Source: Candidatus Harrisonbacteria bacterium
GTDB lineage: Bacteria; Patescibacteriota; Minisyncoccia; UBA6257; WO2-44-18
Length of the DNA stretch: 64,000 nucleotides
Assembly (NCBI GenBank): GCA_016182295.1
Contig: JACOXP010000006.1
Location: 9,298-73,297 of the forward strand
Reading direction: 5' to 3'
Shown: positions 9,693 through 28,901 of the stretch, in pieces
Position numbering within the stretch: position 1 is the first letter of the stretch
Layout: each line of letters begins with the position of its first letter
Translations under genes and position numbers: made by a program
Notes under the pieces: generated by a model
The model's database searches: none
Seen by the model: the letters and a program-made list of their open reading frames with translations, nothing else
Told to the model about the DNA's origin: nothing

Positions 9693-9693
9693 A

Positions 9694-10602: not shown

Positions 10603-10607
10603 AAGAT

Positions 10608-11966
10608 ATGAAGACAGTTTTTTTGTGCGTGCCCAATTACGTTTTTTCAACAGATCTTCTGCGCACGCGTTATATCGGTTATCTAGCATCCAAATACAAA
10701 GTAGTGGTTTTTATGCCGATGATCGGTCCAGAAGAAGCGAAGCGCGTCGGTTATTTTCATTCTACAAATGTCCAGTATGTAAAGTGGGAATTGGAAGTGC
10801 CAAAATTTTGGAGCATTTTTAAGTTATTCAGAATAGCGGCAATGACCGAGTTCGATTATCTCGAATCGGTCCGACACTTCTATAAACGACCCACTTTCAA
10901 AAACAATTGGCAGAGACGTTTGGTCCGTTTTTTCGCGAAGCCGTTTGGGCAGTTATTGACGGCTGATTTTTTTACAAAACTTGAAAGCCGTTTACACCCT
11001 CGATCTCTTCAATTTGATAAATATCTCAAGCAATTCCAGCCAAGTTTGGTAATCACGGCCACGCCGGGTTTTAATCCTTTTGAAGCAGAAATGATTTTAT
11101 TGGCTAAACGATCGAAACTGCCAACGGCGGCTGTTAATTTTACTTGGGATAATTTGACAACCAACTGCAACCATATTAGAAAAACTGATTATTTGATTGT
11201 TTGGAACGATATTGTTAAAGAGGAAGCGAAGAAAATTCATCACTACGATCTGGCTAAAGTTTTCGTCGCCGGTGTTAACAAGTTCGACCATTATTTTAGA
11301 AAAGAAGGCAAACTTAGTCGTGAGGAATTCTTAAAAAGTAAAAAATTAGACCCCAAAAGAAAGACAATAGTTTTTTGTAGCAAGCCGAAAACCTACGTCG
11401 AGCAATTAGATCACGTTCGCGGCATATTGGAAGCGCGCGAAAAAGGACGTCTAGCCGCCCCCGTTAACCTATTGATCAGGCCTCACCCGCTGGATAATCG
11501 AGATAATTATAAAGAATTTATAAATTTACCGAATGTTTATGTTGATTATTCTGGTAAATCAATGAAGTTTTCCGCCGAATCAGTTTCCAATAAAATTGAG
11601 ATGGACGAGGAGGATTTAATGAATTTGAAATACACCTTGCAATACGGAGATGTGCACCTTCAATATGGATCAACCCTGGCGCTGGAAGCGGCAATTTTTG
11701 ACAAACCAATGGTTAATATCGGTTTTTTGAAAACCCTTAATCATGACACAAGCTATAAGGTAACTCATTTTTGGCCGGTTATTGAGACGGGCGCTTCTCC
11801 AATAGCTAAAACGCCAGAGGAACTTGTTGATTTAACCAATCAATATTTAAAAAACCCGATGTTGCATAAAGAAAATCGCCGACAGCTTTTGGAAAAATTC
11901 GTGGTCCTGCGCGACGGTTTTGCTTATAAACGGAATGTGGATTTCCTGGGAAACGTTTTATCCTAA
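10608..11966 (+). CDS. GT-B-like transferase with HP motif, uncharacterised family (paralog 1 of 3, plus a divergent fourth)
   Basis: Start taken at MKTVF immediately after the upstream stop (the tabulated ORF extends out of frame into the upstream gene). Shares TPGFNPFEAE..AKR..PTAAVNFTWDNLT, RPHPLD and C-terminal GSTLALEAAIFDKP blocks with 19406-20737 and 24358-25743. Confidence 0.6.
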   Translation: MKTVFLCVPNYVFSTDLLRTRYIGYLASKYKVVVFMPMIGPEEAKRVGYFHSTNVQYVKWELEVPKFWSIFKLFRIAAMTEFDYLESVRHFYKRPTFKNNWQRRLVRFFAKPFGQLLTADFFTKLESRLHPRSLQFDKYLKQFQPSLVITATPGFNPFEAEMILLAKRSKLPTAAVNFTWDNLTTNCNHIRKTDYLIVWNDIVKEEAKKIHHYDLAKVFVAGVNKFDHYFRKEGKLSREEFLKSKKLDPKRKTIVFCSKPKTYVEQLDHVRGILEAREKGRLAAPVNLLIRPHPLDNRDNYKEFINLPNVYVDYSGKSMKFSAESVSNKIEMDEEDLMNLKYTLQYGDVHLQYGSTLALEAAIFDKPMVNIGFLKTLNHDTSYKVTHFWPVIETGASPIAKTPEELVDLTNQYLKNPMLHKENRRQLLEKFVVLRDGFAYKRNVDFLGNVLS

Positions 11967-11993
11967 AAACAGGTTTAATTTAGAAACGGGGAT

Positions 11994-13571
11994 ATGACTT
12001 TTCGAGAAATTCAGAATTCTGTTTTTCGACTGATGGAAAATCCGGGCGCGACCGTATCCGATCACTTGTCGATCGCGAATCAGCTGGAAGACAGCAAAAA
12101 AGAAAAACCGGAATACTTCCGCGGCATTAAAGCCGCTTTTTTGAGCAACTTTACCATTAAGGGATTGCCGGAGATTTTTAGAACGCGGGCAATTTTCCAC
12201 AATGTCTGGGCGGATGTTTATCTTGGCCCCTATGATCAATGCGCTCAGGAAATTCTTGATAAAAAAAGCGGCCTGTATAAATTCCAGCCGGATTTAATTT
12301 ATTTTCTTTTCGACGCCGACGGCGAAAAGGCAAATCATTACAAAGAACTAGCCAGCCAACTTTCTGGCAAGGTGATGCTGATGGACAGTAATCAAATAAA
12401 AGCGGTCGTCGGTAATTATTGGCAAACCAAATATAAAGAGATGGGAGATTTCAGCGTGGCGCCAGAAGGATTTTCTACACTAGCCGATTATTTAATGAAA
12501 GAAACAATCGCCGTGAGCGGCGCTACCAAAAAATGTTTGGTGTTGGACCTTGATAATACGTTGTGGAAAGGAGTAATTGGTGAAGACGGCCTTGAGGGAA
12601 TAAAACCAGATCAAGATTTTCAACGTCAGGCCCTTTATCTTTATGAGACTGGAGTAATTCTGGCGATAAACAGTAAAAATAATTCAGAAGACGTGCTGGA
12701 AGCAATTGAAAAGCATCCGAAAATGATTCTACGAAAAAATCATTTTGCCGCTTGGCGGATCAATTGGCAGGATAAGGCAACCAATATGAAAGAATTGACG
12801 GATGAGTTAATGCTGGGGGCCGACAGTTTTGTTTTTGTCGATGATAGTCCGTTCGAGAGGAATATCGTGGCCAATAAATTTCCGGAAGTAGCCATTCTAA
12901 GCCCTGAAAGCCTGAAAAATTATCCCGGCTTCCATAAATTAAAAATTACCGATGAAGATCGACGTCGCGGTCAAATGTATGCCGAGGAGCAAATCCGCAG
13001 AAGCGCCCGATCTTCATTAAATAACGTGGAAGATTTTATAAAGTCATTGAATTTGGAAGTTACTATTCGAGAAATAAAATCGGACAGTCCCATTATCCCG
13101 CGTATCGCCCAAATGGCTCAAAAGACCAACCAGTTTAATATGACGACCAAGCGTTGGAGTGAAGATGAAATCAGGACTCTGCTTAATGAACGGCACAATT
13201 ATAAAATGTGGGCTGTTGAGGCAATGGATCGTTTTGGCGATTACGGTATTATAGGTTTCTTGGCCGCAAAGCCCGTAGTTGATAAAGTTTGGGAAATTGA
13301 TAATTTTTTAATGAGCTGCCGTATTCTGGGACGAGGAATAGAAAAGACGCTGTTGGCTCGCGTGATTGAAGAAGCGAATCGGAGCAAAATCAGCAAACTT
13401 ATAGGGGTTTTTATTCCGACCAAAAAAAATAAGGCGCTTTGTGAAGATTTCTATCCAAATAACGGTTTTAATAGTGGGCTTGTCTACAAATCCGCCGATT
13501 CTGTAAACTTTATTCATCACCTAAACAGCCCCTACCCATATCCAGAAAACATAAAAGTAAATTTCTCTTAA
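11994..13571 (+). CDS. FkbH-like HAD-superfamily (subfamily IIIC) phosphatase/acyltransferase
   Basis: LVLDLDNTLWKGVIGEDG (HAD motif I DxDxT), FVFVDDSPFERN, and a C-terminal GNAT-like region. Architecture of FkbH-type glyceryl-ACP loading enzymes. Confidence 0.7.
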   Translation: MTFREIQNSVFRLMENPGATVSDHLSIANQLEDSKKEKPEYFRGIKAAFLSNFTIKGLPEIFRTRAIFHNVWADVYLGPYDQCAQEILDKKSGLYKFQPDLIYFLFDADGEKANHYKELASQLSGKVMLMDSNQIKAVVGNYWQTKYKEMGDFSVAPEGFSTLADYLMKETIAVSGATKKCLVLDLDNTLWKGVIGEDGLEGIKPDQDFQRQALYLYETGVILAINSKNNSEDVLEAIEKHPKMILRKNHFAAWRINWQDKATNMKELTDELMLGADSFVFVDDSPFERNIVANKFPEVAILSPESLKNYPGFHKLKITDEDRRRGQMYAEEQIRRSARSSLNNVEDFIKSLNLEVTIREIKSDSPIIPRIAQMAQKTNQFNMTTKRWSEDEIRTLLNERHNYKMWAVEAMDRFGDYGIIGFLAAKPVVDKVWEIDNFLMSCRILGRGIEKTLLARVIEEANRSKISKLIGVFIPTKKNKALCEDFYPNNGFNSGLVYKSADSVNFIHHLNSPYPYPENIKVNFS

Positions 13572-13575
13572 AATT

Positions 13576-14016
13576 ATGAAATCCAATCCTACTTTACAGT
13601 TAAGCAATTTGAATTACGAAGGCATAAAGATCGATCAGGAATTTTCCTTCGAACGCTTGGTGGACAAGCAATTAGTCGATGAATTTGCCAAATTAAGCGG
13701 CGATTTCAGTCCTCTGCACATGGATGATTCTTACGCCAAAACGACTAAATTCGGCGAACGGATCGCCCATGGGATGCTTTTGGCCAGTTTTTTCTCTGCT
13801 CTGGTGGGGATGTTGTGTCCCGGGAAGAAAGGTTTATATTTATCCCAAACAGCAAATTTTAAAAACCCGTGCCGTTTGGGAGACAAACTTATTGTTATGG
13901 GCAAGATAAAATCAAAATCGGATTCAACCAGAACATTGGAATTAAGCACAATAATTAAGAATACTAACGGGAAAATTTTGGTGGACGGGTCGGCAATGGT
14001 AAAATTTTTAGAGTAA
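13576..14016 (+). CDS. MaoC-like (R)-specific hotdog-fold dehydratase
   Basis: FAKLSGDFSPLHMD...AHGM is the MaoC dehydratase signature; about 146 aa single hotdog. Confidence 0.75.
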   Translation: MKSNPTLQLSNLNYEGIKIDQEFSFERLVDKQLVDEFAKLSGDFSPLHMDDSYAKTTKFGERIAHGMLLASFFSALVGMLCPGKKGLYLSQTANFKNPCRLGDKLIVMGKIKSKSDSTRTLELSTIIKNTNGKILVDGSAMVKFLE

Positions 14017-14019
14017 TTT

Positions 14020-14721
14020 ATGGATCTTAAATTAAAAGGCAAAGTAGTTCTTATATTGGGAGGAACCGGAGGGATCGGCTCTGCGATAACGGCGGAATTC
14101 CAGAAAGAAGGCGCTTCGGTTTGCGCCCATGGGCGTTCGGGCAATTACGCTACTGATCTGACGTCTGAAGACGCGATGGCTGGGCTGGTGGAAAAGGCAA
14201 TGAAACAATTTGGGCGGGTTGATACGGTGATCAATTCTCTATCGACTCCGGTAAAACACGGAGCTTTAGAGTCAAAAAAATGGTCCGATTTTCAGGACCA
14301 AATTGATGTTCAAACACGCTCGTTTGTTGATTTATTGCCGCTGGTTGTGCCGACGATGAAGAGGCAGGGTGGCGGCCGAATAATAAATATTTTAACCACT
14401 TACGTGATTGGGCAGCCCCCGTCCGGGTTGGCTGATTACGTAACTGCCAAATACGCGCTATTGGGCCTGACTAAAGCGGCAGCCAGAGAATTGGGTAAAT
14501 ATCACATAACGGTAAACGCCGTTTCCCCGAGTTTTATCCGCAATAAATTTACCGATCGGATACCGGAAAAATTTGACGAATTGTTAATCAGCCAGACTCC
14601 GCTTGGTCGTTTAGCAACTCCGGAAGATGTGGCGAGAACCGTTTTATTTCTTGCTTCAGAAAAAGCCGAGTTTATTACCGGTGAGAATATCATTGTTGCC
14701 GGTGGCCAAACAATGGATTAA
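14020..14721 (+). CDS. Short-chain dehydrogenase/reductase (FabG-like ketoreductase)
   Basis: LGGTGGIGSAI cofactor motif; YVTAKYAL catalytic YxxxK. Confidence 0.85.
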   Translation: MDLKLKGKVVLILGGTGGIGSAITAEFQKEGASVCAHGRSGNYATDLTSEDAMAGLVEKAMKQFGRVDTVINSLSTPVKHGALESKKWSDFQDQIDVQTRSFVDLLPLVVPTMKRQGGGRIINILTTYVIGQPPSGLADYVTAKYALLGLTKAAARELGKYHITVNAVSPSFIRNKFTDRIPEKFDELLISQTPLGRLATPEDVARTVLFLASEKAEFITGENIIVAGGQTMD

Positions 14722-14732
14722 TTTTAATTTTT

Positions 14733-14960
14733 ATGAAGACACTTGAAGAAATAATTGCCGGCGTTTTAACGATTGATGTCAAATCGGTCAATGATCAGAC
14801 CAGTCCGGAAAATACTCCCGGCTGGGATTCTTTTAACAGTATTCTTTTGGTTAGCGAAGTTGAAAAAAATTTCAACGTCAAATTTGAATTGGATGAGGTA
14901 GTGGGATTGAAAAATGTCGGGGATTTTCGGGCTCTCTTGAAAAAACGCGGCGCTTTTTAG
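14733..14960 (+). CDS. Acyl carrier protein
   Basis: 75 aa, acidic, with GWDSFNSILLVSEVE containing the DS(F/L) phosphopantetheine attachment serine context. Confidence 0.7.
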   Translation: MKTLEEIIAGVLTIDVKSVNDQTSPENTPGWDSFNSILLVSEVEKNFNVKFELDEVVGLKNVGDFRALLKKRGAF

Positions 14961-14962
14961 GA

Positions 14963-16066
14963 ATGAAAATCGAATTTCTGGATAAAAAGGATCGGAGCTT
15001 GCTAGAACAATTTTATCGGGAAAGCTATTCTCCAAAATATATTTTGCTCAGAAAAGATTTTTTTGATTGGTACACGGTTAAAAATCCGAATTACCGAGAT
15101 CGATTCCCGGATGGACAACTTCCAGTTCTGGTTCTTAGAGACGATAAAAGGATCTTGGCTCATTGGGTTTGCGGAGCGCAAAAATTCAATTTTTTTGGGA
15201 GAAACTTTTCTATGTTCTGGACTTCTAATTGGATGGTTCATCCGGATTTTCGCCATCGTGGTTTGGGTGCTCTTATAACTAATTTTTTGCAAAAGCTGCC
15301 GGTGGATGTATTGGCGGCAAATATGGTGACCAAAGAATCAAGGAATGTCTTAGAGCGACTTAATTATCAATATCAAGACCTTAATCGTTATTTAGCGGTT
15401 TTTTCTGACGAAGCTTTAAATTTAGTTAACCACCGAAATGATCCAAGAGTTCGGGATCGTTTGCGGGAAGTTATTATCCCCGCTAAGAATGGCGATTTTG
15501 CCAATATTGAGCCGGTTTCCGCCTTTGCAGAAGACTATAACGAGTTTTGGCACAGCGGTTTCGCGCCCGTAGCGCAAGGCGGAGCGCGCGACGCCGATTT
15601 TTTAAACTGGCGATATCCGCAAGCTCCGTTTTTTGAATATCGCTGTTTTGTGGTTAAAGACAATCAAAAAAAGATAAAAGGGGTGATTGTTTTACGCATT
15701 GATGAGATTCGAAACACTAACTACCGAGCTTGTCGGATGTTGGAATTTTTTACTGATCCGGAATGGGCAAAACTAGCCGCCGAATTTGTAATCAGCTATG
15801 CCCGGCGGGAAAAATGCGTTTTTCTTGACTATTACAATTTGTTTTCCGGTTTTGATTCATTTTTCGCGGAAGCCGGAATTTTAAAGAATGATTCCGTATT
15901 ATCAACGGAAATTCCAAGATTGACTCAACCGGTAGCTCATGAGAATTGGTTTATTAACGCGGTTTTTTGGAAGAGGAATCCTGAAATTTCCAACGAAACT
16001 TTCTTTAATTTCGACAAATGGTATACTACCTCCGGCGATTCAGATCAAGATCGAAAAAATTTTTAA
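14963..16066 (+). CDS. GNAT-fold-like putative acyltransferase, paralog A (candidate carrier-protein-dependent transferase)
   Basis: Paralogous to 27807-28892: shared N-terminal block, the GNAT-like HPDFRHRGLG versus KKDLRSLGYG, and a near-identical C-terminal WYTT.SD.DQDR tail. Sits directly after an ACP gene. Confidence 0.5.
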   Translation: MKIEFLDKKDRSLLEQFYRESYSPKYILLRKDFFDWYTVKNPNYRDRFPDGQLPVLVLRDDKRILAHWVCGAQKFNFFGRNFSMFWTSNWMVHPDFRHRGLGALITNFLQKLPVDVLAANMVTKESRNVLERLNYQYQDLNRYLAVFSDEALNLVNHRNDPRVRDRLREVIIPAKNGDFANIEPVSAFAEDYNEFWHSGFAPVAQGGARDADFLNWRYPQAPFFEYRCFVVKDNQKKIKGVIVLRIDEIRNTNYRACRMLEFFTDPEWAKLAAEFVISYARREKCVFLDYYNLFSGFDSFFAEAGILKNDSVLSTEIPRLTQPVAHENWFINAVFWKRNPEISNETFFNFDKWYTTSGDSDQDRKNF

Positions 16067-16972
16067 ATGATTTCAAATAGCGATCAGTATATTGTCGTCA
16101 ATTATCATTTCGTTTTAAATCCCGAAGATCGTCCGGATTTAGGCGGAATTTTTCCGTGCCTGCCGGAGACTTTTTCTAATCAGCTAAAGTGGCTTAAAAA
16201 GAATTTTACTTTGACAGCCGTGGATGAAGTTTATAGAGCCGCCCGTGAAAAACGGTCCGGCCGTTTTTGCGCGTTAACCTTTGACGATGGCACTCGAGAC
16301 CATCTGGAAATAGTTTTCCCGTTGCTGCGCGAACAGCGAGCGCCGGGAACATTTTTTGTCATAACGGGTCCGTTTGAGGGGAAAATGCCCACTTCGCATA
16401 AAATCTATAGATTAAGATCAGAGCTGACAATCCCCGAATTAATAGATCATTATAACAATTTTTCTAGAAATCCTATGCCCACCGACAAATTTATCGATCC
16501 AACCGAGCGGTATGATGATTTGCTTACATCAAATTTTAAAACCACGATAGCGCGTTTGCCGCACTCCGTGGCGAATGAATTTATGAACGTGCTATTTTCT
16601 CAATTGGGGTGGGACGAAAATCTTGAGGCCAGAAAGCTTTTTTTAATGCCGGAAGATATTGTTAAAATGAAGTCGGGAGGAATGAAATTCGGAGCGCACG
16701 GTGACAGTCACAATCCCTTTCCGGTTTTAAAAGATGATGAAGTGGCAAACGAACTTAGGAATTCAAAACGAATACTCGTTGATCTTTTAGGAGAAGAAGT
16801 TCATTTATTTTCTTATCCGCATGGACAGTATCGCCGCCAACACCCAAAATTAATAGAGGATTTCGGTTTCCACTATGCCGCCACGACCGAAAGACGATCA
16901 ATCAACGGAATCGAAAATAAATTTTTGCTGCCTCGTTTTGACGCCAACGATCTAAAAGATATTCAAAAATGA
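16067..16972 (+). CDS. Polysaccharide deacetylase (CE4, NodB homology domain)
   Basis: TFDDGTRD and HGDSH motifs of CE4 deacetylases. Confidence 0.8.
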   Translation: MISNSDQYIVVNYHFVLNPEDRPDLGGIFPCLPETFSNQLKWLKKNFTLTAVDEVYRAAREKRSGRFCALTFDDGTRDHLEIVFPLLREQRAPGTFFVITGPFEGKMPTSHKIYRLRSELTIPELIDHYNNFSRNPMPTDKFIDPTERYDDLLTSNFKTTIARLPHSVANEFMNVLFSQLGWDENLEARKLFLMPEDIVKMKSGGMKFGAHGDSHNPFPVLKDDEVANELRNSKRILVDLLGEEVHLFSYPHGQYRRQHPKLIEDFGFHYAATTERRSINGIENKFLLPRFDANDLKDIQK

Positions 16973-17904
16973 AGTACTCTATAAACGATAAACATATAGT
17001 AATTAATTATCATTACGTGGAAAATCCCAGTCGAAACTGGTCCGGTATCCATCCCTGCTCAATTGATGAGTTTAATCGCCAAGTCAAATTCCTATCCGAA
17101 AACTACAAATTTGGCTCTCTGGTTGACGTTTTTCAGGCGGCCAAAAATAACAACGCGGAAAGGGTATGCGCGATAACTTTTGATGACGGTTTACGCGATC
17201 AATATGAAAATACCCTCCCGATTCTTAAAAAAGGCTCAGCTACGGCGACTTTTTTCATCATCACCGCGGCTCTAGAAGGCCGCTTGCCGCCCGCTCACCG
17301 CATTCATGTTTTGTTATCAAAAATCGCGATAAACGACCTAATTAACCTTTTTAATGAATATTTAAAGGAATTTTATTCGGATCTCCAAAAACAATATTTT
17401 ATTCCGAAAGATCGGCGTTTAACTCAACGCCGCCTTCATGAGGACATTCCAACGGCTAATTTTAAAGAAACGCTAATAATGTTGCCGGAGGATATCAAAG
17501 CCCAGTTTTTACGGTATTGTTTTAAAAAACAAGGACTGGATTCGGAACGGCTTTCTCGTCAAATATTTATGGGGGCGGGAGAGATTCGGGAATTACAGAG
17601 AGCGGGTATGCAAATTGGCGCTCACACCCATCAACATTACGCCTTAGACACAATGAATCCGGAAGCAATCAAAAATGACATCAATCTTAATAAAGCCGGC
17701 TTGGACTCGGTTTTGGGATTTGTGCCAGAGGTGTTTTCCTACCCTCATGGGCGCTATCAGCCGGCGGCCGTATCTATTTTGCGAGATGAAAAATTCAAAC
17801 ACGCTGTCACAATAGAGAAACGTGGAGTATCCGGTTCAGACGACCCGTTGTTAATGCCTCGGTATGACACGAACGATCTCCGAGACTTTTTAAATTTACG
17901 ATAA
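16969..17904 (+). CDS. Polysaccharide deacetylase (CE4), tandem paralog
   Basis: ITFDDGLRD, HTHQH motifs; clear paralog of the preceding gene. Confidence 0.8.
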   Translation: MKYSINDKHIVINYHYVENPSRNWSGIHPCSIDEFNRQVKFLSENYKFGSLVDVFQAAKNNNAERVCAITFDDGLRDQYENTLPILKKGSATATFFIITAALEGRLPPAHRIHVLLSKIAINDLINLFNEYLKEFYSDLQKQYFIPKDRRLTQRRLHEDIPTANFKETLIMLPEDIKAQFLRYCFKKQGLDSERLSRQIFMGAGEIRELQRAGMQIGAHTHQHYALDTMNPEAIKNDINLNKAGLDSVLGFVPEVFSYPHGRYQPAAVSILRDEKFKHAVTIEKRGVSGSDDPLLMPRYDTNDLRDFLNLR

Positions 17905-17907
17905 TTT

Positions 17908-18603
17908 ATGAAAAAGGAAGCAAACAAAATTTTTGAACGCAATAAATCTGTTTGGGATAATCTCAAAATTTCTTCCATGAACTTGGACGTCAATTTCGTG
18001 CGATGCCAAAAATATCTTTTCCCGGAGGGCCGAAAGAAAAAACTGCTTTACATCGGTTTTGGGGAGGGACAGAATCTGGAGTATTTGGCAAAAGCGGGAT
18101 TTGATGTTTATGGCACGGAGATCGCGGAGAGCCGCGTCGGAGAAACCAAAAAACGACTCAAGAAAAATAAGCTCAAGGCGCGTCTGTATCTTGTTAAATC
18201 CAGCGCGTTGCCATTCCAGGACGGATTTTTCGATATTGTTGTGGCTTGGCAATCCATTTACTACAACGATGAAAACGGACTTAAAGCAATCCTTAAGGAA
18301 ATTAACCGAGCGTTAAAGCCAAAAGGGCAATTTCTTTCATCAATGATATCCACAAAGCAAAATCTTCTTTGTAGTAAAAAAATTGGATTGTCTACTTATC
18401 GTCCCGCAAAAAAAACTGGGCAACAGAACTGCACAATTTTTTGCTTTAAGAACAAGAACCAAATACGCAAACTCTATGGCGACTTTGCGAGAATTAAAAT
18501 AGGTTTTTACAGCTCCTATTTATTCAAGAGCCGAAACTTTCACTATGTGATTTATTGCGTCAAAACAAAACATTCCCTAAAGGAGTTACATAATTTACAA
18601 TGA
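17908..18603 (+). CDS. Class I SAM-dependent methyltransferase
   Basis: LLYIGFGEGQNLEYLAKAGFDVYGTE (motif I) and ALKPKGQF (post-I). Confidence 0.7.
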   Translation: MKKEANKIFERNKSVWDNLKISSMNLDVNFVRCQKYLFPEGRKKKLLYIGFGEGQNLEYLAKAGFDVYGTEIAESRVGETKKRLKKNKLKARLYLVKSSALPFQDGFFDIVVAWQSIYYNDENGLKAILKEINRALKPKGQFLSSMISTKQNLLCSKKIGLSTYRPAKKTGQQNCTIFCFKNKNQIRKLYGDFARIKIGFYSSYLFKSRNFHYVIYCVKTKHSLKELHNLQ

Positions 18604-19409
18604 GTAAATTAGAATCAGACATTTCACTGGTTATTATTACCGCCAATGCATTGAGGCATAAATTTGTAACCAATCAGTTAATTAAAGATTTTCAGGTTAA
18701 AGGAGTTATTTCCGAAATCAAGCGTCCATTAAGGCAAGGCGACACGGTGGAGGAAAATGAGATTATTGCTAAGCACAGCCGTGAGCGTGATGAAAAAGAA
18801 ATCGAATATTTTGGCGCTGAGAAAGACTTTAATCTTCCGACAGAGAAAATAATGAGGGTAGACTATGAGGAAGCTAATAGCCAAAAAGTATACGACTGGA
18901 TTAAAAAATTGAATCCCAATTACGTAGTTCTCTTTGGCAGTGGCATCGTGCGCGATCCGCTTTTAAGTGAATATAAGGGACGAATCATCAATATGCACCT
19001 TGGCCTCTCTCCCTATTATCGTGGTTCGGCGACCACCTTTTGGCCATTTGTGGAAAAAGAACCGGAATGTATCGGCGTTACCGTCCATTTAGCGGTTTTG
19101 AAAGTAGACGCGGGATCAATTTTGGGGCAATCTCGGCCGGAAATTAACCCTGACGACGGCGCCCATGATATAGGCTACAGAAATATTATCGCCGGGGCCG
19201 AACTTCTAACGAGATGTATCCGCGAATACAGCGCTGGAAAAATTCAACCGAAACCCCAGCGTCTCGATATCGGAAAGGTTTTTAAACACAAAGATTTCAA
19301 CGCGCAATCGGTGTTAAAGATGAAAGAAAATTTTTCAAACGGGATGATTGAGCTTTATTTAGAAAATAAACCCCAGCGTGACGCTCAATACCCGATTATT
19401 GAGGCATGA
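18600..19409 (+). CDS. Formyltransferase-domain protein (sugar N-formyltransferase candidate)
   Basis: VVLFGSGIVRDPLL...IINMHLGLSPYYRGSATTFW matches the N10-formyl-THF formyltransferase core (Fmt/PurN/ArnA-N-like). Confidence 0.7.
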   Translation: MSKLESDISLVIITANALRHKFVTNQLIKDFQVKGVISEIKRPLRQGDTVEENEIIAKHSRERDEKEIEYFGAEKDFNLPTEKIMRVDYEEANSQKVYDWIKKLNPNYVVLFGSGIVRDPLLSEYKGRIINMHLGLSPYYRGSATTFWPFVEKEPECIGVTVHLAVLKVDAGSILGQSRPEINPDDGAHDIGYRNIIAGAELLTRCIREYSAGKIQPKPQRLDIGKVFKHKDFNAQSVLKMKENFSNGMIELYLENKPQRDAQYPIIEA

Positions 19410-20737
19410 AGACGATCTTTCTTTTTGTCCCGCCGAGTCTGATTTCGGATCTTTTACGCACCCCGTATTTGAAGCATGCGGCAGAAAAATTTCGGGTTAT
19501 AGTTTTTACTAGAACAGTTGATCAAGAAACCGGCGAGCGGGAATATCTTAAATCGCCAAACGTGATTTACCATCGTTGGAAAACCCATAACTCCAAATTG
19601 CTGGGAAGGTTCAAGTTTTTCCGAATAGACGGAATCCACCAATTTAATTATTTGAGGGGAGTCGCCCAGTATTATCAAAAAAACATTTTTCTTTCCGATC
19701 GCCGGGCTCGACTAATTAGATTTTTGACCAGGCCTTTTGGAAAAATTTTGACAACCGATTTTTTTACCACGGTTGAAAAATTTTTAATAAAAGTGCCGAG
19801 GGAATTTCGAGACGCCGTAAAAAAATATCAACCATCCGCGGTAGCCGTTTCCACCCCGGGAATGACTGTTTTCGAAGCCGAAGCGATCTTGATGGCCAAA
19901 CGATTGGGGGTGCCGACCGCGGCCGTTAATTTCAATTGGGATAATCTTACTTTGCAGAAAGCCCACTTAATGCGGAGATGTGATTTCTTGCTGGTTTGGA
20001 ACGATATCATCAAGGAACAGGCGATCAAAATTCACAAATATCATCCGAATAAAGTGATGGCAACAGGCGTAATGCGTTTTGATCACTACTTTCAGAAAGG
20101 AAAAGAAGAAATTAGCCGTGATGAGTTTTTGAAAACCAAAGGTTTGAATCCTAATTTGAAAACCATTCTAATTATTACCGAAAGCAAGAATTACTCATTT
20201 CAGTTAAAATGGTTTCGCAAATTGTTCGAACTCCGCGAGAGAGGGAGTATTCCCTATGCCAATGTTTTTATTAGAATTCATCCCCACGATACGCCAGAAG
20301 CTTATAAAGAGTTCTCTGGGCTACCGGATGTTAATGTGGAATTAGCCGGGCAACCGATGGTTAATCAAGCTGACCGAATTGAAATGCGCGTTTCCGATTT
20401 AGAAAATCAAAAACTGACTATTAAACACACGGATATTAATTTCAACTATTGCTCTACAATGTCCTTGGAATCGATGATATTTGACAAACCGGTAGTGATT
20501 TTTTATGAACCAGGTCATTACGACACCGAAAAGACTCATTTCAAACCCATTCTGGACGTTGGTTCTGCAAAACTGGTTAGAAGCCCAGAAGAGCTTGCTT
20601 TAACTATCAAACAATACTTGACTAATCCGGGGTTAGATAGAGAAAAACGCAAGCTCGTCCTTGATCGCTATATGCCATTTAGGGATGGTCAATCCCCAAA
20701 ACGCAGCGTCGAAGCGCTGGCAAAAATACTAAAATAA
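19406..20737 (+). CDS. GT-B-like transferase with HP motif (paralog 2)
   Basis: TPGMTVFEAEAILMAKRLGVPTAAVNFNWDNLT, RIHPHD, CSTMSLESMIFDKP; paralog of 10608-11966. Confidence 0.6.
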   Translation: MKTIFLFVPPSLISDLLRTPYLKHAAEKFRVIVFTRTVDQETGEREYLKSPNVIYHRWKTHNSKLLGRFKFFRIDGIHQFNYLRGVAQYYQKNIFLSDRRARLIRFLTRPFGKILTTDFFTTVEKFLIKVPREFRDAVKKYQPSAVAVSTPGMTVFEAEAILMAKRLGVPTAAVNFNWDNLTLQKAHLMRRCDFLLVWNDIIKEQAIKIHKYHPNKVMATGVMRFDHYFQKGKEEISRDEFLKTKGLNPNLKTILIITESKNYSFQLKWFRKLFELRERGSIPYANVFIRIHPHDTPEAYKEFSGLPDVNVELAGQPMVNQADRIEMRVSDLENQKLTIKHTDINFNYCSTMSLESMIFDKPVVIFYEPGHYDTEKTHFKPILDVGSAKLVRSPEELALTIKQYLTNPGLDREKRKLVLDRYMPFRDGQSPKRSVEALAKILK

Positions 20738-20742
20738 CGCCG

Positions 20743-22626
20743 GTGCTGATTTACAGTAGAAAAATTTTTGTTCTTGTTGTGCTGGCAGTGGCGGTTGGAT
20801 TGTTTTATACACTACCGCCGTTTTTGGTTTGGCGGGATTTGGCGAGCAATGGCGAACCATTTCTGTTAGCAAACCTCCAATCCTACAAAGATGAAATGAC
20901 CGTGTATTTGCCAAAAGCGAGAGAAGTGTACGATGGTCATTTTCCTCCAACAGACGTTTATTCCGGAGAGACTGGGCCATCAGTTCTTGGTATCGTGCCG
21001 AGCGTTTTATTCGCGCCATTTCTTTTTCTTTTTGATGGCGATTTGAATTGGGCTTATTTAGCCGCGCAGTTTTTCTTTTCCGGATTGATATTTTTGATTT
21101 TTTTCTGGCTGGGAAATTTATTTTTCAAATCAAGAAGATGGGCGCTAACCATTTCTTTATTGGGCGTTTTAACCCCGCTGGCAACCATTTATTATGGGTG
21201 GAGCTTGAGCGGAACGGCAAGTATTTTGAAAACAATTGTTAAACAATTTGTACCATTGGTAAGAACCGAAATTCATAAATTGTATTTAGTAAGAATTGAC
21301 GATCCAATGCTAACTTTGCCGGTTTATCTTTTAGCAATTGGCGGTCTTTATACATTTTGGATGTCGCCTAAGCGGCGGACGGCTGTTTTTGCCGCTCTGC
21401 CAATGGGATTTCTTTTTTATACCTATTTTCATTATTGGATTTTGTGGTTGATAATAATCGGAGTTTTAACTTTATTTGGTTTGTATTCAATATGGCGAAC
21501 CCCTAGTTGGTTTAACAAAGATAAGTTAATTTATTTCTTTGTTTTGTTGGTGATTATTGGATTGATGGCCGTTCCTTACGCGATGAATTACCTAGAAACT
21601 TTGCAAATACTCGGAGGCCAGGATCATGGATTGAGATTGGGCGCTACTTACGGCCGGGATGTCTGGCCGATACAGCAATTTGCCTTCAGGCATTATATTG
21701 CGTATTTATTTTTAGTCGGCGCTGTTTACTGGCTTTATTTTCGAGGCGGAGATCAAAGGCGGGGGATATTTTTTTTAAGCTGGCTTTTAGCTTTCTTTGT
21801 ATTCTGGAACATTCAGACAATAACTGGATTTATGGTGGAACAAGTTCTGGCGCCAAGAGCCATAGCCCCTCTAATGTATGTGCTTCTATTCGTCTTACTT
21901 TTCGACCTGATAAAAAAAATCTCAATTCGGAAACCCTTATGGGGCCATTTAACGATTTGGTTTCTAACAGCTGTAATTGTTTTAATTCCACTCAAGAAAG
22001 CCGTCAATGTTTTAGCGATTATAAACCCGAGTTCGGAAACCAAGGACTATTACCGTTTTTCCGGAGAATTAATTGACTCCTGGAAATGGATTAACGCCAA
22101 TTTGAGAAAAGAACCGAAAATCGTTGCCTCTTCATTAGTGACGTCTTTTTATCTTACTACTTATACCTCAGCCCGCCCCTACGTAGCTACTGGATTTGTT
22201 TCTGCTCTGCCAACAATAGAGCTGGAACAAAGATTTCTAAACGCGAATAAATTATTCCAAGTCCCAGAAGATGTTTTTCGTCATCGGATTATTGGCGATC
22301 TGATTCTTAAATGTGGAGAAAATTGCCCGCCGGACGCTGTGTTTAATTTGGACAAAACTCGTCGTTTTCTCTTTGTCGCGGATTCAGCCAAAGTTTCTAA
22401 AATGGTTGGCCGCGAGAGCAAAACAATACTTGAATACGCCGATTCTGTAACGGCGTCATATAAGGCATTAAATTTGAATTGGGATGATATTGATGCGGAA
22501 TACGTTTATCTGGGGCCGCTAGAACGAATGTTTAGTAGCCCTAATTTTCTTGCCGTGCCTAATCTAAGTTTGATATATCAAAATCCTGAAGTAGAAATCT
22601 ACAAAATCGACAAAATTGATTTTTGA
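20743..22626 (+). CDS. Large polytopic membrane protein, GT-C-fold glycosyltransferase candidate (paralog 1)
   Basis: About 12 predicted TM helices; first extracytoplasmic loop carries KDE..YLPKAREVYDGHFPPTD, conserved in the paralog at 32416-34329; C-terminal soluble domain. Confidence 0.5.
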   Translation: MLIYSRKIFVLVVLAVAVGLFYTLPPFLVWRDLASNGEPFLLANLQSYKDEMTVYLPKAREVYDGHFPPTDVYSGETGPSVLGIVPSVLFAPFLFLFDGDLNWAYLAAQFFFSGLIFLIFFWLGNLFFKSRRWALTISLLGVLTPLATIYYGWSLSGTASILKTIVKQFVPLVRTEIHKLYLVRIDDPMLTLPVYLLAIGGLYTFWMSPKRRTAVFAALPMGFLFYTYFHYWILWLIIIGVLTLFGLYSIWRTPSWFNKDKLIYFFVLLVIIGLMAVPYAMNYLETLQILGGQDHGLRLGATYGRDVWPIQQFAFRHYIAYLFLVGAVYWLYFRGGDQRRGIFFLSWLLAFFVFWNIQTITGFMVEQVLAPRAIAPLMYVLLFVLLFDLIKKISIRKPLWGHLTIWFLTAVIVLIPLKKAVNVLAIINPSSETKDYYRFSGELIDSWKWINANLRKEPKIVASSLVTSFYLTTYTSARPYVATGFVSALPTIELEQRFLNANKLFQVPEDVFRHRIIGDLILKCGENCPPDAVFNLDKTRRFLFVADSAKVSKMVGRESKTILEYADSVTASYKALNLNWDDIDAEYVYLGPLERMFSSPNFLAVPNLSLIYQNPEVEIYKIDKIDF

Positions 22627-23606
22627 GCTATAATTTTCCCATGCGCATTCTAGTTACTGGAGGGGCCGGGTTTATAGGCAGTCATTTAGTTGAACGTTTA
22701 TCCAGAAATGGAGACCGAGTTATTGTTTTAGACGATTTTTCAACCGCCAGCCGGGAAGTAGTTAACTGGGTCGAAAAATTACCCGGCGTAACTATTGTTA
22801 AAGGATCAGTTTTGGACAAATCGCTCTTGACAAGAACAATATCCGGCTGCCAACAAATTTATCATTTGGCCGCGGCAGTTGGGGTTAAATTGGTTGTAGA
22901 AAAACCACTGCAGTCTTTTTTAACAAATGTTTCCGGTTCTCATAATGTTTTAGAACTGGCAGATAAGAAAAAAATCCCAGTTTTATTAACTTCTTCATCC
23001 GAAGTTTATGGAAAAAGCGACAAATTGCCGTTTCGAGAAAATGAAGACCGAGTTTACGGATCTGTTTACAATGAGCGTTGGGGATATGCATTATCCAAAA
23101 CATCGGATGAATTTTTAGCCCTAGCGTACTGGAGAGAACGGGGGTTACCAGTTGTGGTGGTCCGCCTTTTCAATACAGTCGGTCCTCGTCAGGTTGGAAC
23201 CTACGGAATGGTGGTACCTCGGCTAGTTCAACAAGGATTGCGAAATGATGATCTTACTATTTATGGCGATGGTCTTCAGATCAGATCCTTTAGTTATGTA
23301 GGCGATGTGGTTGACGGAATGCTAAAACTTTTAAATTCTAAAAAATCACATGGAGAAATTTTTAATCTTGGATCACCGGAACCGATAACTATTCTCGATT
23401 TAGCCAAAAAAATCAAAGTATTGATGAAGAGTCAGTCTAAGTTAAGAATGATTCCTTATCGGAAAGTTTACGGAGAAACTTTTGAAGATATGCGAGTAAG
23501 AGTCCCCGATATTTCTAAAGCTAAACGAATTGTTGGGTACAAACCTAAATTTACCCTTGATGACACTCTCAAAGCCGTTATCGATTACTACAGAAAATCT
23601 TTATGA
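22623..23606 (+). CDS. NAD-dependent epimerase/dehydratase, UDP-glucuronate decarboxylase (UXS/ArnA-C)-like
   Basis: ILVTGGAGFIGSHLVERL; SSSEVYG; YALSK catalytic pair; overall resemblance to UDP-xylose synthase type SDRs. Confidence 0.7.
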   Translation: MSYNFPMRILVTGGAGFIGSHLVERLSRNGDRVIVLDDFSTASREVVNWVEKLPGVTIVKGSVLDKSLLTRTISGCQQIYHLAAAVGVKLVVEKPLQSFLTNVSGSHNVLELADKKKIPVLLTSSSEVYGKSDKLPFRENEDRVYGSVYNERWGYALSKTSDEFLALAYWRERGLPVVVVRLFNTVGPRQVGTYGMVVPRLVQQGLRNDDLTIYGDGLQIRSFSYVGDVVDGMLKLLNSKKSHGEIFNLGSPEPITILDLAKKIKVLMKSQSKLRMIPYRKVYGETFEDMRVRVPDISKAKRIVGYKPKFTLDDTLKAVIDYYRKSL

Positions 23607-24349
23607 AATTAGAACTTTTATCAGTGATCGTCCCTGCTTACAATGAAGGGCCGTCAATTGAAAAGGCGCTAGAAGCAGTTTTTGCCGTGCCGGTTAAAAA
23701 GGAAGTGATAGTAGTTGATGATGGTTCGACTGACGAAACGGCGGAGATTGTTGAGAAACTTAGTAAGGTTTTGACCAAGCAGAATAAATATTCTTATCTC
23801 AAAGAATTGAAATTCGTGAAAAAAGAAGAAAATTCCGGTAAAGGATCTGCCATTAGATCTGGATTGTCTTTAGTGTCCGGCGATGTTGTTTTAATTCAGG
23901 ACGCGGATTTGGAATTGGACCCAAATGAATACCCCAAATTGCTGGCGCCATTTAAAGAAATGGAAGCAGATATTGTTTTTGGTTCTCGGTTTCGCAGAGA
24001 AGGAATTATTCGAGTTCAACAAACATTTCACTTTTTGGGCAATAAGGCGTTAACCTGGTTTTCTAATTTGTGCACCGGGTTTTATCTCACCGATATGGAA
24101 ACTGGTTTTAAGGTTTTCCGTAGCGATTTAATGAAGGGTTTTAAGTTGATCTCTAATCGTTTTGGCATAGAACCCGAGCTAGCTGCTAGAGCGGCTCAAG
24201 CCACTAGAAAGAAACGGTTGAATTTTTATGAAGTTTCTGTTTCATATCGACCGCGAACCATAGCCGAAGGAAAAAAAATGCGTTTTTTCCGAGGTGGAGT
24301 AATAGCATTATTAGCAGTTATCTACTTTAATTTTATTAATAAGTCCTAG
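23603..24349 (+). CDS. GT2 polyprenol-phosphate sugar synthase-like glycosyltransferase (DPM1/ArnC/GtrB-like)
   Basis: LSVIVPAYNEGPSIEKAL...VDDGSTDET GT2 N-terminus; hydrophobic C-terminal tail. Confidence 0.75.
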   Translation: MKLELLSVIVPAYNEGPSIEKALEAVFAVPVKKEVIVVDDGSTDETAEIVEKLSKVLTKQNKYSYLKELKFVKKEENSGKGSAIRSGLSLVSGDVVLIQDADLELDPNEYPKLLAPFKEMEADIVFGSRFRREGIIRVQQTFHFLGNKALTWFSNLCTGFYLTDMETGFKVFRSDLMKGFKLISNRFGIEPELAARAAQATRKKRLNFYEVSVSYRPRTIAEGKKMRFFRGGVIALLAVIYFNFINKS

Positions 24350-24357
24350 TCCTTAGT

Positions 24358-25743
24358 TTGAAGAATTTTTGGCTTTCTAGGAGTTTTAAGATAATAAGTA
24401 TGAAAACCGTATTTATAGCCGTTTTTCAAGGAACGGAATTTCGGAATATTATCCGGACAGACATTTATAAAGAATTGATCAATCAGCCGAATGTCCGCTT
24501 GGTTCTATTTACTGACAATGAAGTTAAGCGTGATTATTTCCAATCACAATTTAACGCTCCAAACGTTATTTATGAAATAGCCAATGATTATCGGCCGCAC
24601 TGGTCGGCGCCGATTTTTGGTTTTCTAAAATATAATCTGATCAAAACCGGCACTTTAGACATGAAACGCCGCAGAAAATTGGAACAAAATGGCAACTATT
24701 TTAATTATTATTTCCGATGGCTTACCAATCGCCTGTTGGCTAATCGATTGTCAAGAATTATAACTCGCTGGGCGGCGTTTCATTTAGTGCGTGACGATTT
24801 TTTTGCCTCTTATTACGATAAATACCAGCCACAAATGGTTCTATTAGCTCATCTTTTCAGCGATATCGAGACGTCAATGCTAAGAGAAGCAAAACGGCGA
24901 AAAATAATTTCTGTTGGATTGATAAACTCCTGGGACAAGTTAACTTCCAGAAATATGCTTTTGCTTTTGCCGGACAAAATGCTGGTCCATAATCGGATAG
25001 TGAAAAATGAAGCTATTCGTTTGGCTGATATGTCGAAAAAGGATATAACAATAGTCGGCATACCGCATTTCGACCATCATTTTAAAACGCCAAGGTCTTC
25101 CAAAAAGGAATTTGCTAAACGATTTGGCTTGGATCCTAACAAGCGATACGTAGTTTTTTGTCCGGAGGGAAAGACCTATATTGATTCTGATGGGCAAATG
25201 GCCAGCTTAATTGATGAAATGATTGCTAGCGGAGAATTGCCGAATGACCTCCAACTAATAATCCGCTTGCCGCCAAATGATATCATTGATATTTATCCAT
25301 ACAAAACAAAAGTGGTCATTCAGCAAGCTGGCAAGCGTTTTTCCAAGAAACGCGGAGTAGATTGGGATATGGACGAAGAAGATTTTCGGTTATTGGCTGA
25401 TACAATGCGTCATGCTTCGGTGATAATTCTTTATGCCTCAACGGTAGCAATGGACGCGGCGGTTTTCAATAAACCTCTTATCAGCGTGAATATTAAATTT
25501 CCAAATTATCCTTCCACTGATTGGGTTTATGAATATGAACATTGCGGCACTCTTTTGCGAACCGGTGGTTTGGATTACGTAAGGACACGCGCCGATTTGG
25601 CTAATTCTATCAAGCGATATCTTGAAAATCCTCAATTCAATGACGACGGTCGGAGCAGGATTCGAGAGGAGCAGTGTCATTATTTAGACGGCAGGTCAGG
25701 GAAACGTGTGGCCGAATACATCCTCGATTTGTTAAACGTTTAA
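24358..25743 (+). CDS. GT-B-like transferase with HP motif (paralog 3)
   Basis: MKTVFIAVF N-terminus (an alternative start at 24400 matches the paralog N-termini better) and C-terminal ASTVAMDAAVFNKP block; the HP position is degenerate (LPPND). Confidence 0.55.
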   Translation: MKNFWLSRSFKIISMKTVFIAVFQGTEFRNIIRTDIYKELINQPNVRLVLFTDNEVKRDYFQSQFNAPNVIYEIANDYRPHWSAPIFGFLKYNLIKTGTLDMKRRRKLEQNGNYFNYYFRWLTNRLLANRLSRIITRWAAFHLVRDDFFASYYDKYQPQMVLLAHLFSDIETSMLREAKRRKIISVGLINSWDKLTSRNMLLLLPDKMLVHNRIVKNEAIRLADMSKKDITIVGIPHFDHHFKTPRSSKKEFAKRFGLDPNKRYVVFCPEGKTYIDSDGQMASLIDEMIASGELPNDLQLIIRLPPNDIIDIYPYKTKVVIQQAGKRFSKKRGVDWDMDEEDFRLLADTMRHASVIILYASTVAMDAAVFNKPLISVNIKFPNYPSTDWVYEYEHCGTLLRTGGLDYVRTRADLANSIKRYLENPQFNDDGRSRIREEQCHYLDGRSGKRVAEYILDLLNV

Positions 25744-25746
25744 TAA

Positions 25747-26088
25747 ATGGTCATGAAAGGAATCGGAATCGATATAATCAAAATAAATCGTTTTAGAAGA
25801 ATCCCTTATAAGAAGCGACCGTCTTTTTATAAAAATATATTTACTAATCTCGAAATTGAATATTGTCTTGGTAAAAAAGATCCTTACCCGAGTTTTGCCG
25901 CGAGGTTTGCCGCAAAGGAGGCAATCGTCAAAGCGGTTGGTGGGACTATTTATAAAGCGAGACAAATCGAGATTCGTAAAGGCAGTTCTGGCCGGCCGAT
26001 GGTGAAGCTTCAAGGTCGAAAAAAGATACTGCTCTCTTTATCTCATGACGGAGAATACGCCGCCGCTATTGCTCTATGGTTAAACTAA
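25747..26088 (+). CDS. acpS: Holo-[acyl-carrier-protein] synthase (4'-phosphopantetheinyl transferase)
   Basis: GIGIDIIKINRF...FAAKEAIVKA is the canonical AcpS signature; 113 aa. Confidence 0.8.
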   Translation: MVMKGIGIDIIKINRFRRIPYKKRPSFYKNIFTNLEIEYCLGKKDPYPSFAARFAAKEAIVKAVGGTIYKARQIEIRKGSSGRPMVKLQGRKKILLSLSHDGEYAAAIALWLN

Positions 26089-28892: not shown

Positions 28893-28901
28893 TTAACAGA
28901 T

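Follow-up and report, generated by a model that had tools for sequence, protein, structure and literature searches.

Three paralogous genes, designated here A, B and C, lie in a surface-glycan gene cluster of Candidatus Harrisonbacteria, an uncultivated bacterium of the Patescibacteria/Parcubacteria group, and on balance their products are probably glycosyltransferases (GTs) that use nonulosonic acids activated with cytidine monophosphate (CMP) and that belong to a Patescibacteria-expanded clade of the TagF fold related to enzymes of Tannerella forsythia. The cluster covers ~47 kb, with nearly all genes on the + strand, of the 64,000-nt stretch analysed (contig JACOXP010000006.1, positions 9,298 to 73,297; hereafter the window, numbered 1-64000). 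A, B and C are soluble or peripheral GT-B enzymes, and the clade to which they belong is large and uncharacterised and falls within the TagB/TagF and BFO_1060 superfamily. The data presented here show how the three are related to one another, what fold and family they have, which residues are conserved and which genes surround them. An initial annotation, made from the sequence alone, had proposed CMP-ulosonic-acid transferases on the strength of an HP motif and of known GT families; that line of reasoning mostly fails, but the proposal itself stays the best-supported reading. It stands because the BFO_1060 profile outscores the TagB/TagF profile, because T. forsythia offers knockouts of TagB-type genes, and because the gene context is one of nonulosonate rather than CDP-polyol synthesis.

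All three open reading frames (ORFs) are real and lie on the + strand, as initially annotated, and only the start of C had to be moved. Paralog A (10608..11966, + strand, 452 aa) and paralog B (19406..20737, + strand, 443 aa) are of a histidine-bearing type, termed AB-type, with the signatures TWDNLT ... IRPHP ... STLALE..FDKP and NWDNLT ... IRIHP ... STMSLE..FDKP, respectively, and paralog C (24400..25743, + strand, 447 aa from its ATG) is of a histidine-less C-type with SWDKLT ... IRLPPND ... STVAMD..FNKP. Translation from 10608 (A) or 19406 (B) opens with MKT[IV]F, the invariant N-terminus of the family; for A, the mechanical ORF begins at 10308 and overlaps the upstream gene into which it runs, thus 10608 is the better start. 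The mechanical ORF of C starts with TTG at 24358; the ATG at 24400, which gives the N-terminus MKTVF and has AGGAG 16 nt upstream, is best read from the sequence as the start. By BLASTP, A and B share 43% identity (E=1e-124), A and C 31% over 320 aa (E=3e-41), and B and C 26% over the full length (E=1e-29), values that bear out the paralogy and rule out a chance or artefactual origin of the likeness. The motif blocks reported as common to the three proteins are exact in A and B but divergent in C, in which the first block reads AHL.FSDIET..AKR..ISVGLINSWDKLT and the C-terminal block is STVAMD...FNKP. Likewise, the R.HP.D motif is present in A and B, whereas C has RLPPND at that position and no 'HP' anywhere. 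No fourth copy of the family was found in the 64-kb window, and no membrane segment is predicted in A, B or C.

Confident AlphaFold2 models of B and C (predicted local distance difference test scores of 92.2 and 93.6, respectively) agree with the GT-B-like scaffold assumed from the outset: both proteins have two Rossmann-like domains with an inter-domain cleft, and the N-domain carries a helical insertion of ~80 residues (63-141) that sets the clade apart from TagF-like enzymes. Foldseek against PDB retrieved generic GT-B matches only, and a direct phmmer search of B against PDB sequences gave no real match. A profile of 25 family members, searched against PDB sequences, retrieved the ribitol-phosphate polymerase TarL alone (E=6e-10), via the C-terminal domain only, the UDP-sugar 2-epimerases being weak (E about 0.1 or worse). 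When the family was aligned by hhalign with seven genuine TagF-like proteins, the match reached 98.3% probability (E=2.7e-14).

The Pfam family PF04464 (Glyphos_transf, TagB/TagF; gathering score 22.1 bits) matches A, B and C with 23.6, 47.4 and 45.3 bits (E 3e-5 to 2e-12), the match of A being marginal, with a best stretch that covers residues 188-298 only. Because this family is above threshold for all three, they are formally placed among the TagF-like proteins, which the initial annotation had named as a placement that would refute its proposal. However, the placement is compatible with CMP-sugar use, since TagF enzymes themselves release CMP. Moreover, the best-scoring curated family for each of the three is NCBIfam NF046086, 'BFO_1060 family glycosyltransferase', which outscores PF04464 throughout (A 74.9, B 74.1, C 53.0 bits; E=6e-21, 1e-20, 3e-14). 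The match of wild-type B to this model is reported as two stretches; for most near-identical point variants of B it is one stretch that aligns B 134-443 with profile positions 39-365 of 365. The model TIGR04396, 'surface carbohydrate biosynthesis protein', matches A (39.3 bits) and B (33.5 bits) and not C, and the NCBIfam TarB, TarF and TarL models match none of the three at E<=1. Control proteins, namely Staphylococcus epidermidis TarL and a Parabacteroides TagF-like protein, match TarF/TarL/TarB and not BFO_1060 or TIGR04396. Controls and A/B/C thus score in opposite ways, which puts A, B and C on the BFO_1060 side of the superfamily, outside the BFO_1060 family itself. The kinship suggested initially with GT38/52/80/30/107 or Capsule_synth enzymes has to be given up, as a Pfam scan of the three proteins at E<=1 returned no sialyltransferase (GT38/52/80), Kdo-transferase (GT30/107; PF04413) or Capsule_synth (PF05159) model; there was no match to Glycos_transf_1 or Glyco_transf_28 either.

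In T. forsythia, Tanf_01245 and TFUB4_00887 (BFO_1060 in strain 92A2) have a TagB-superfamily domain, and deletion removes the derivative of pseudaminic acid (Pse) or of legionaminic acid (Leg) from the S-layer O-glycan (PMC5420450). In the literature searched, they are the only experimentally known nonulosonate transferases of this fold. We compared them with A, B and C through the NF046086 profile. The two sets are alike in length (442-445 aa there, 443-452 aa here), in their TagB-type GT-B domain, in having no predicted membrane segment and in adjoining nonulosonate biosynthesis genes, and A and B also share the HP motif (PMC5420450). They differ in that neither A nor B contains the D/E-D/E-G and DXD motifs described in T. 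forsythia, which the clade as a whole does not conserve either, and in that the locus described here is from Patescibacteria, not Bacteroidota, and has three copies, one of them without the histidine. A check for D/E-D/E-G had been suggested with the original proposal; in addition to its absence from A and B, no triple of columns has the motif in more than 7 of the 228 family domains that we aligned (from an exhaustive search and other matches; see below).

Genes for the synthesis of a CMP-activated nonulosonic acid lie nearby, as initially annotated. A NeuC/LegG-type hydrolysing NDP-sugar 2-epimerase (28902..30071, + strand; TIGR03568 362 bits, cutoff 235.9; PF02350 236 bits) is predicted to catalyse the first committed step. 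It is followed by a CMP-nonulosonate synthetase of the CTP_transf_3/PseF-like type (30061..30792, + strand; TIGR03584 198.1 bits, cutoff 205.7), the only cytidylyltransferase found in the window, which we propose would supply the CMP-nonulosonate donor. Further downstream there is a NeuB-family nonulosonate synthase with a SAF domain (38721..39842, + strand; PF03102 255 bits; best NCBIfam match NeuB_NnaB, 283 bits, below cutoff). No known sialyl, Kdo, Pse or Maf transferase model matched any of the ~50 window ORFs scanned. A CMP-nonulosonate cluster needs such a transferase, and no other candidate appears among these ORFs, which argues for A, B and C in this role.

The same association recurs in other genomes. 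A scan for the pattern [AS][VIT][ND][FCS]xWDNLT, in which each GTDB species was represented by a single genome, yielded 23 loci, all in Patescibacteria metagenome-assembled genomes (MAGs), and with contigs from an exact-protein lookup we obtained 26 related loci. A NeuB, NeuC or CMP-synthetase homolog lies within 10 kb in 23 of them (22 of 25 if one duplicate contig is removed), and three have no nonulosonate gene inside this distance. In loci L040 and L041, a single C-type gene is located 9 bp upstream of the genes for NeuB, CTP_transf_3 and a HAD protein. One Niyogibacteria locus (L042) combines two family genes with two NeuB, one Epimerase_2 and one CTP_transf_3 gene, and the only plasmid-borne relative, from Peribacillus, comes after pseG-pseH-pseI.

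The clade is typically organised in sets, with two to four paralogs in 22 of the 26 related loci. We typed every family ORF in 27 loci, taking R-x-H-P as the mark of the AB-type and, usually, R-x-P/Q/Y-P as that of the C-type, and found both types in 20 of them; that every locus has an AB-type gene is by design, AB-type queries having been used to find them. The C-type proteins have lost the histidine and retain W-D, R, P, S/T and E/D. Clustered at 90% identity, they make up at least 191 groups, of which those with a name are all from Patescibacteria, and several share contigs with AB-type matches; one protein (P0114) combines a C-type module and a polysaccharide deacetylase in a single fusion. 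An exhaustive hidden Markov model search of a 50%-identity library gave 16,473 representatives with E<=1e-3, of which 3,420 have E<=1e-30. Among 198 family proteins, 30 are longer than 700 aa, reaching 1,546 aa; the majority of them join two or three modules in tandem, each with SWDNLT and RPHP, and a few consist of one module plus other sequence. Taken as a whole, the paralog sets look like cooperating, non-redundant modules. A distant branch of ~520-aa proteins (L038, L039; including a Verrucomicrobiota MAG) occurs in clusters with several sulfotransferase, Capsule_synth and ABC2 transporter genes, without nonulosonate genes and with several neighbour genes that lack a Pfam match; this context led us to leave it out of the clade.

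That branch bears on an alternative which we consider unlikely, namely that A, B and C are ordinary GT-B transferases with a UDP-, GDP-, dTDP-sugar or another non-ulosonate donor and stand near nonulosonate genes only because these genomes keep their glycan genes in a single locus. Its ~520-aa proteins are relatives in sulfotransferase surroundings, the three related loci with no nonulosonate gene within 10 kb would suit it, and the Harrisonbacteria cluster itself encodes dehydratases and epimerases of the short-chain dehydrogenase/reductase (SDR) family, an NTP_transferase and a short UDP-glucose/GDP-mannose dehydrogenase. However, the sequence likeness is specific to the CMP-releasing branch (TarL, BFO_1060) and not to GT4/GT28-type enzymes, the cluster would be left with no transferase for its CMP-nonulosonate, and the linkage to NeuB and CMP-synthetase genes in L040 and L041 is as tight as in an operon.

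A second alternative takes the family label literally: the three proteins would be genuine TagF-like phosphotransferases that draw glycerol-phosphate, ribitol-phosphate or the phosphate of another alcohol from a CDP donor, and would serve as primase, oligomerase and polymerase, like TarB/TarF/TarL, of a teichoic-acid-like polymer on a monoderm-type cell. Apart from the PF04464 scores, this agrees with the name given by NCBI to such proteins (B is 100% identical to a Candidatus Harrisonbacteria MAG entry called 'CDP-glycerol glycerophosphotransferase family protein'), with the sets of TagF-like paralogs typical of wall-teichoic-acid pathways (PMC10901376), and with the AMP-ligase and 76-aa carrier protein encoded after C, which superficially resemble DltA and DltC. 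The residues and the gene context speak against it. In TarL, the catalytic base is H300, stacked on W299, and its counterpart in TagF, H444, is essential and invariant in that family (PMC10901376); the position is also invariant in our alignment of seven genuine TagF-like proteins. In the 228 domains of the clade no N-domain histidine is conserved, the best being H210 (B numbering, used throughout) at 64%, and the TagF invariants K306 and R398, the latter in the APTFR motif (A-P-T-F-R398), are not kept; C-type proteins lack the second essential histidine of TarL as well. The TarB, TarF and TarL models, which genuine members match strongly, do not match A, B or C, as described above. Finally, genes for a CDP-polyol precursor are missing. 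Homologs of TagD/TarJ were not detected even at E<1 in any window ORF of 70 aa or more, and the single TarI match in the window (16.6 bits) is to the generic NTP_transferase at 44236-44937; in the 26 related loci there is no TagD/TarJ at E<1 and TarI-like matches reach only <=17 bits, to generic nucleotidyltransferases. In contrast, TarI/TarJ/TagD/IspD genes adjoin four of six genuine TagF-like control loci. On this evidence we regard the teichoic-acid alternative as quite improbable.

An identity of A, B and C as non-transferring enzymes of nonulosonate biosynthesis akin to the nucleotide-sugar 2-epimerases/hydrolases, their closest solved folds, is very improbable: C has weak matches to Epimerase_2 (PF02350; E=0.0096) and to the NCBIfam model NeuC_NnaA (E=0.002), but the former reaches 15.2 bits where the gathering score is 30.6, and is absent for A and B, the profile search gave E>=0.1 for epimerases versus 6e-10 for TarL, a bona fide NeuC is already encoded in the cluster, and arrays of two to four copies and fusions of two to three modules are more readily explained by transferases that act in series than by one step of a pathway.

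The conserved residues of the clade bear on its putative catalytic centre. The best-conserved positions among the 228 domains are P143, A164, S177, W178, D179, N199, G221, D226, F241, R290, P293, P362 and H378; D179 occupies its position in 225 of 226 residues. Judged from the alignments, the absence of the TagF catalytic histidine from the clade and the rank of an invariant aspartate as its best-conserved polar residue in the N-domain are robust. For the spatial correspondence we considered the order of strands. The AlphaFold2 model of B has strands at 171-176, 194-197, 217-219, 253-257 and 286-291, and we assigned the TarL strands beta15-beta19 to IIQVW, AYVSS, IIPTG, VILFAP and VLFKMH; in TarL, beta15 leads into a loop made up of residues 299-308, beta18 and beta19 flank P395, and the loop that follows beta19 carries H433 (PMC10901376). 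The last four of the five strands of the clade and TarL are aligned by hhalign. By strand order alone, W178-D179, which follows strand 171-176 in the model, would be the counterpart of TarL W299-H300, with W-D in the clade versus W-H in TagF-like enzymes, and we infer that the aspartate may replace the histidine as the base.

In the C-domain the correspondence is given by profile alignment, which pairs H292 with TarL H433 and E355 with E479; in addition, G..RFD of the clade pairs with G.PR.D of TagF-like proteins. H433 of TarL contacts the alpha-phosphate and helps CMP leave, and the H433A variant is inactive (PMC10901376). The equivalent residue in TagF, the second histidine of that family that contacts the alpha-phosphate, is H584. 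In the clade, H292 is histidine in 167 of the 228 domains, with proline (29), tyrosine (9) and glutamine (8) among the replacements. The initial annotation had taken the HP motif as a hallmark of CMP-ulosonic-acid enzymes. Because it aligns with TarL H433, and weakly also with UDP-sugar 2-epimerases, and because C does without it, HP reads from these alignments as a nucleotide-phosphate motif of this GT-B subgroup and not as an ulosonic-acid hallmark. Scored with the BFO_1060 profile, variants of B lose bits relative to the wild type (74.1 bits) when these residues are substituted (H292A 70.4, -3.7; R290A 71.6, -2.5), which indicates that the R..HP element is common to that family. We also considered the W-D signature as a link between the clade and T. 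forsythia, and rejected it, as the BFO_1060 profile does not reward S-W-D-N-L-T.

Several points weigh against the assignment of A, B and C as CMP-nonulosonate transferases. The TagF family PF04464 is the sole Pfam family above threshold for them, and the NF046086 scores of 53-75 bits are far under the curated cutoff of 200, as for relatives and not members; A and B are also far below the TIGR04396 cutoff of 125 bits. The T. forsythia precedent is one of genetics (gene knockout), not enzymology (PMC5420450). The C-type lacks a histidine that is essential in TarL, where H433A is inactive. The placement of D179 on TarL H300 is a candidate with which no profile method agrees, hhalign with full and N-domain sub-alignments, in local and global mode, putting the TarL segment 'IIQVWHA' on the family helix 155-166. 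Variants at this site hardly change the scores: with the BFO_1060 profile D179H gives 73.5 bits (-0.6) and W178A 75.6, all changes being <=1.5 bits, and with PF04464 (wild type 47.4 bits) D179H gives 47.8 (+0.4) and W178A 48.9, the shifts for D179A, W178A and D179H+N180G again being <=1.5 bits. As to the context, the small genomes of Patescibacteria may pool their glycan genes, so that proximity to NeuB may mean only 'same glycan', and a DegT/PseC-type aminotransferase, as for a 5,7-diamino sugar, was not found in window 1-64000; the nonulosonic acid may be of the Neu or Kdn type, or the aminotransferase may be encoded elsewhere in the genome. For all members of the clade, we infer the donor, the catalytic roles and the order of the pathway.

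Under the nonulosonate reading, the NeuC-like epimerase, the NeuB-like synthase and the PseF-like cytidylyltransferase would make a CMP-activated nonulosonic acid, to which the products of the tailoring genes probably add N-formyl, N-acyl or methyl groups. Each of A, B and C would then move the nonulosonic acid from CMP onto a hydroxyl of a lipid-linked oligosaccharide. Synthesis of this oligosaccharide would begin with the Bac_transf enzyme and continue with the GT2 enzymes; Wzx would then flip it, and the Wzy_C-like protein would polymerise or ligate it. The C-terminal Rossmann domain would hold the CMP part as in TarL/TagF. In B, R290-x-H292-P293 is expected to face the phosphate, with H292 aiding the departure of CMP, and S350-T351 and E355 would occupy the usual GT-B position for the ribose. 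The nearly invariant S-W-D-N-L-T loop of the N-domain contains D179, which is the strongest candidate for a base acting on the acceptor hydroxyl, a role held by histidine in TagF enzymes. The joint presence of histidine-bearing and histidine-less types in most loci suggests different linkages, acceptors or donor variants, and a primer/extender split like that of TagB/TagF, or the assembly of an oligo-nonulosonate stretch, is possible for the copies.

The proposed enzymes can be set beside several known systems. The TagF-like group (TagB/TagF, TarB/TarF/TarL/TarK and the capsule polymerases Bcs3 and Cps3D) has the GT-B fold and an alignable C-terminal nucleotide-binding domain, as A, B and C do; these enzymes release CMP, which would also be the leaving group here, and their pathways likewise employ several paralogs. 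Among the Bacillales SpsB-like 'spore coat proteins' and TIGR04396 proteins, the Peribacillus plasmid relative matches both BFO_1060 and TIGR04396 and has Q-H-G where the clade has W-D. In Bacillus subtilis, the transfer of Leg was shown to do without SpsB (PMC7439481). The sialyltransferases of GT38, GT52 and GT80 resemble the proposed model in their GT-B fold, CMP-sugar donor, C-domain HP histidine and proposed acidic base in the N-domain; they differ from A, B and C in giving no profile match to them and in the D/E-D/E-G motif, which A and B lack. Enzymes of the Capsule_synth lineage, such as KpsC (GT107), KpsS, WbbB (GT99), KpsS1 (GT118) and KrkA (GT140), use CMP-activated ulosonic acids as well; however, they belong to a different structural lineage with a retaining double-displacement mechanism, and PF05159 does not match A, B or C. 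In KpsC, modules that differ in linkage specificity stand in tandem (PMC12887879), an arrangement that the tandem fusions of this clade resemble. As regards UDP-GlcNAc 2-epimerase/NeuC (Epimerase_2), the scores of A, B and C are below threshold and the predicted role is different.

Each of the three paralogs adjoins putative tailoring genes. Directly upstream of B is a formyltransferase gene (18600..19409, + strand; PF00551), a candidate for N-formyl decoration of the sugar; the start of B overlaps its stop by 4 nt, which suggests translational coupling and an N-formylated sugar. Directly downstream of A there is an acyl module (11994..16066, + strand) that encodes an FkbH-domain protein of the glyceryl-ACP type (11994-13571; TIGR01686 276 bits), a MaoC dehydratase (13576-14016), an SDR (14020-14721), an acyl carrier protein (ACP) of 75 aa (14733-14960) and a GNAT-like protein of 367 aa (14963-16066). 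A second module, directly downstream of C (25747..28892, + strand), comprises a phosphopantetheinyl transferase (25747-26088), the AMP-ligase (26076-27608), an ACP of 76 aa (27586-27816) and a GNAT-like protein of 361 aa (27807-28892). Both ACP genes fall below the 100-aa ORF cutoff, and the GNAT-like proteins encoded after them are paralogs. In locus L043 the order C-type gene, phosphopantetheinyl transferase, AMP-ligase, ACP and GNAT-like gene recurs, with an extra small GNAT gene right after the C-type gene. The cluster also encodes several methyltransferases and three GT2 enzymes. N-formyl, N-glyceroyl and N-hydroxybutyryl groups (Fo, Gra and Hb, respectively) are known in nonulosonic-acid variants (PMC5378307), and the formyltransferase, FkbH/ACP, MaoC/SDR and methyltransferase genes fit these known decorations. 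Two polysaccharide deacetylase genes (16067..17904, + strand) follow the first module, a gene type that recurs beside family members. For lipid-carrier assembly and export, the cluster has genes for a Wzy_C/O-antigen-ligase-like protein with tetratricopeptide repeats (42080-44230, + strand), the NTP_transferase (44236-44937, + strand), the Wzx flippase (44921-46189, - strand) and the Bac_transf initiating phosphoglycosyltransferase (46190-47524, - strand).

Directly downstream of B, a polytopic membrane protein of 627 aa (20743..22626, + strand) without a Pfam or NCBIfam match is encoded; it has a paralog of 656 aa (32359-34329), also without a match in these collections. Each has at least eight transmembrane-like segments and a soluble C-terminal part of ~200 aa, and AREVYDG.FPPTD near the N-terminus is common to both. 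Homologs occur in 12 of the 26 related Patescibacteria loci. These two proteins may be GT-C-like glycan transferases or ligases, and whether the one next to B is part of the A/B/C system is uncertain. PseB/FnlA-like and LegB-like 4,6-dehydratases are encoded at 1855-3700, followed by a split transketolase whose N-terminal gene (3687-4496) and pyrimidine/C-terminal gene (7600-8517) are separated by genes for a methyltransferase, an ornithine/diaminopimelate-type pyridoxal phosphate-dependent decarboxylase and an SDR; transketolase genes also adjoin family members in L005/L006, L042 and L043. The UDP-glucose/GDP-mannose dehydrogenase homolog (41215-42099) has only 294 aa and lacks the C-terminal domain, and a similarly short form of 293 aa is found in another Paceibacterota cluster (L003, 1036-1917). 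In mid-cluster, a gene for an extracytoplasmic function-type sigma-70 factor (38082-38657, - strand) is divergent from the NeuB gene. A promoter scan of positions 9000-28900 found fewer promoter-like sites than in the shuffled control, and a terminator scan of the same region found a modest excess of weak hairpins (33 vs 22.1, sd 4.7, in the shuffled control). Outside the glycan cluster, 55904-59104 encodes a 1,066-aa protein with a lamin-tail domain (LTD) as its sole recognisable domain. The first ORF of the window (20-1120) aligns with the YfhO membrane-protein model solely at the C-terminal end, with 25.8 bits, which is short of the gathering score, and over its last ~50 residues only; it has one transmembrane-like segment near the N-terminus.

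To our knowledge, transferases for bacterial nonulosonic acids such as Pse, Leg and their relatives are poorly known, and the envelopes of candidate phyla radiation (CPR) bacteria are almost unstudied. The idea of a TagB-like nonulosonate transferase is precedented: the literature searched contains one genetic study of this type, in T. forsythia, with no enzymology or structure. The same literature holds no description of the clade, its histidine-less subtype, its arrays and fusions or its CPR setting, and no paper that links CPR bacteria to sialic-acid-like surface sugars. Clade members are routinely annotated as teichoic-acid glycerophosphotransferases; if our assignment is true, a widespread annotation would be corrected. 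The enzymes would then offer tractable soluble catalysts for making Pse/Leg-type glycosides. What the HP histidine does could be read, as in a natural experiment, from the pairing of histidine-bearing with histidine-less proteins. Tentatively, we envisage a broader scenario, which is possible though rather doubtful in its entirety, in which Patescibacteria carry a surface polymer or glycan rich in heavily tailored nonulosonic acids, built by an unrecognised family that derives from TagF/TarL with its catalytic histidine changed to aspartate and that works in sets of histidine-bearing and histidine-less enzymes, sometimes fused into polymerase-like proteins of two or three modules, the histidine-less subtype transferring without the HP histidine, a residue regarded as essential in sialyltransferases and TagF-like enzymes. 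In that scenario, thousands of database entries named 'CDP-glycerol glycerophosphotransferase' would be misnamed. If the assignment of A, B and C is true, CPR bacteria would be shown to display sialic-acid-like sugars.

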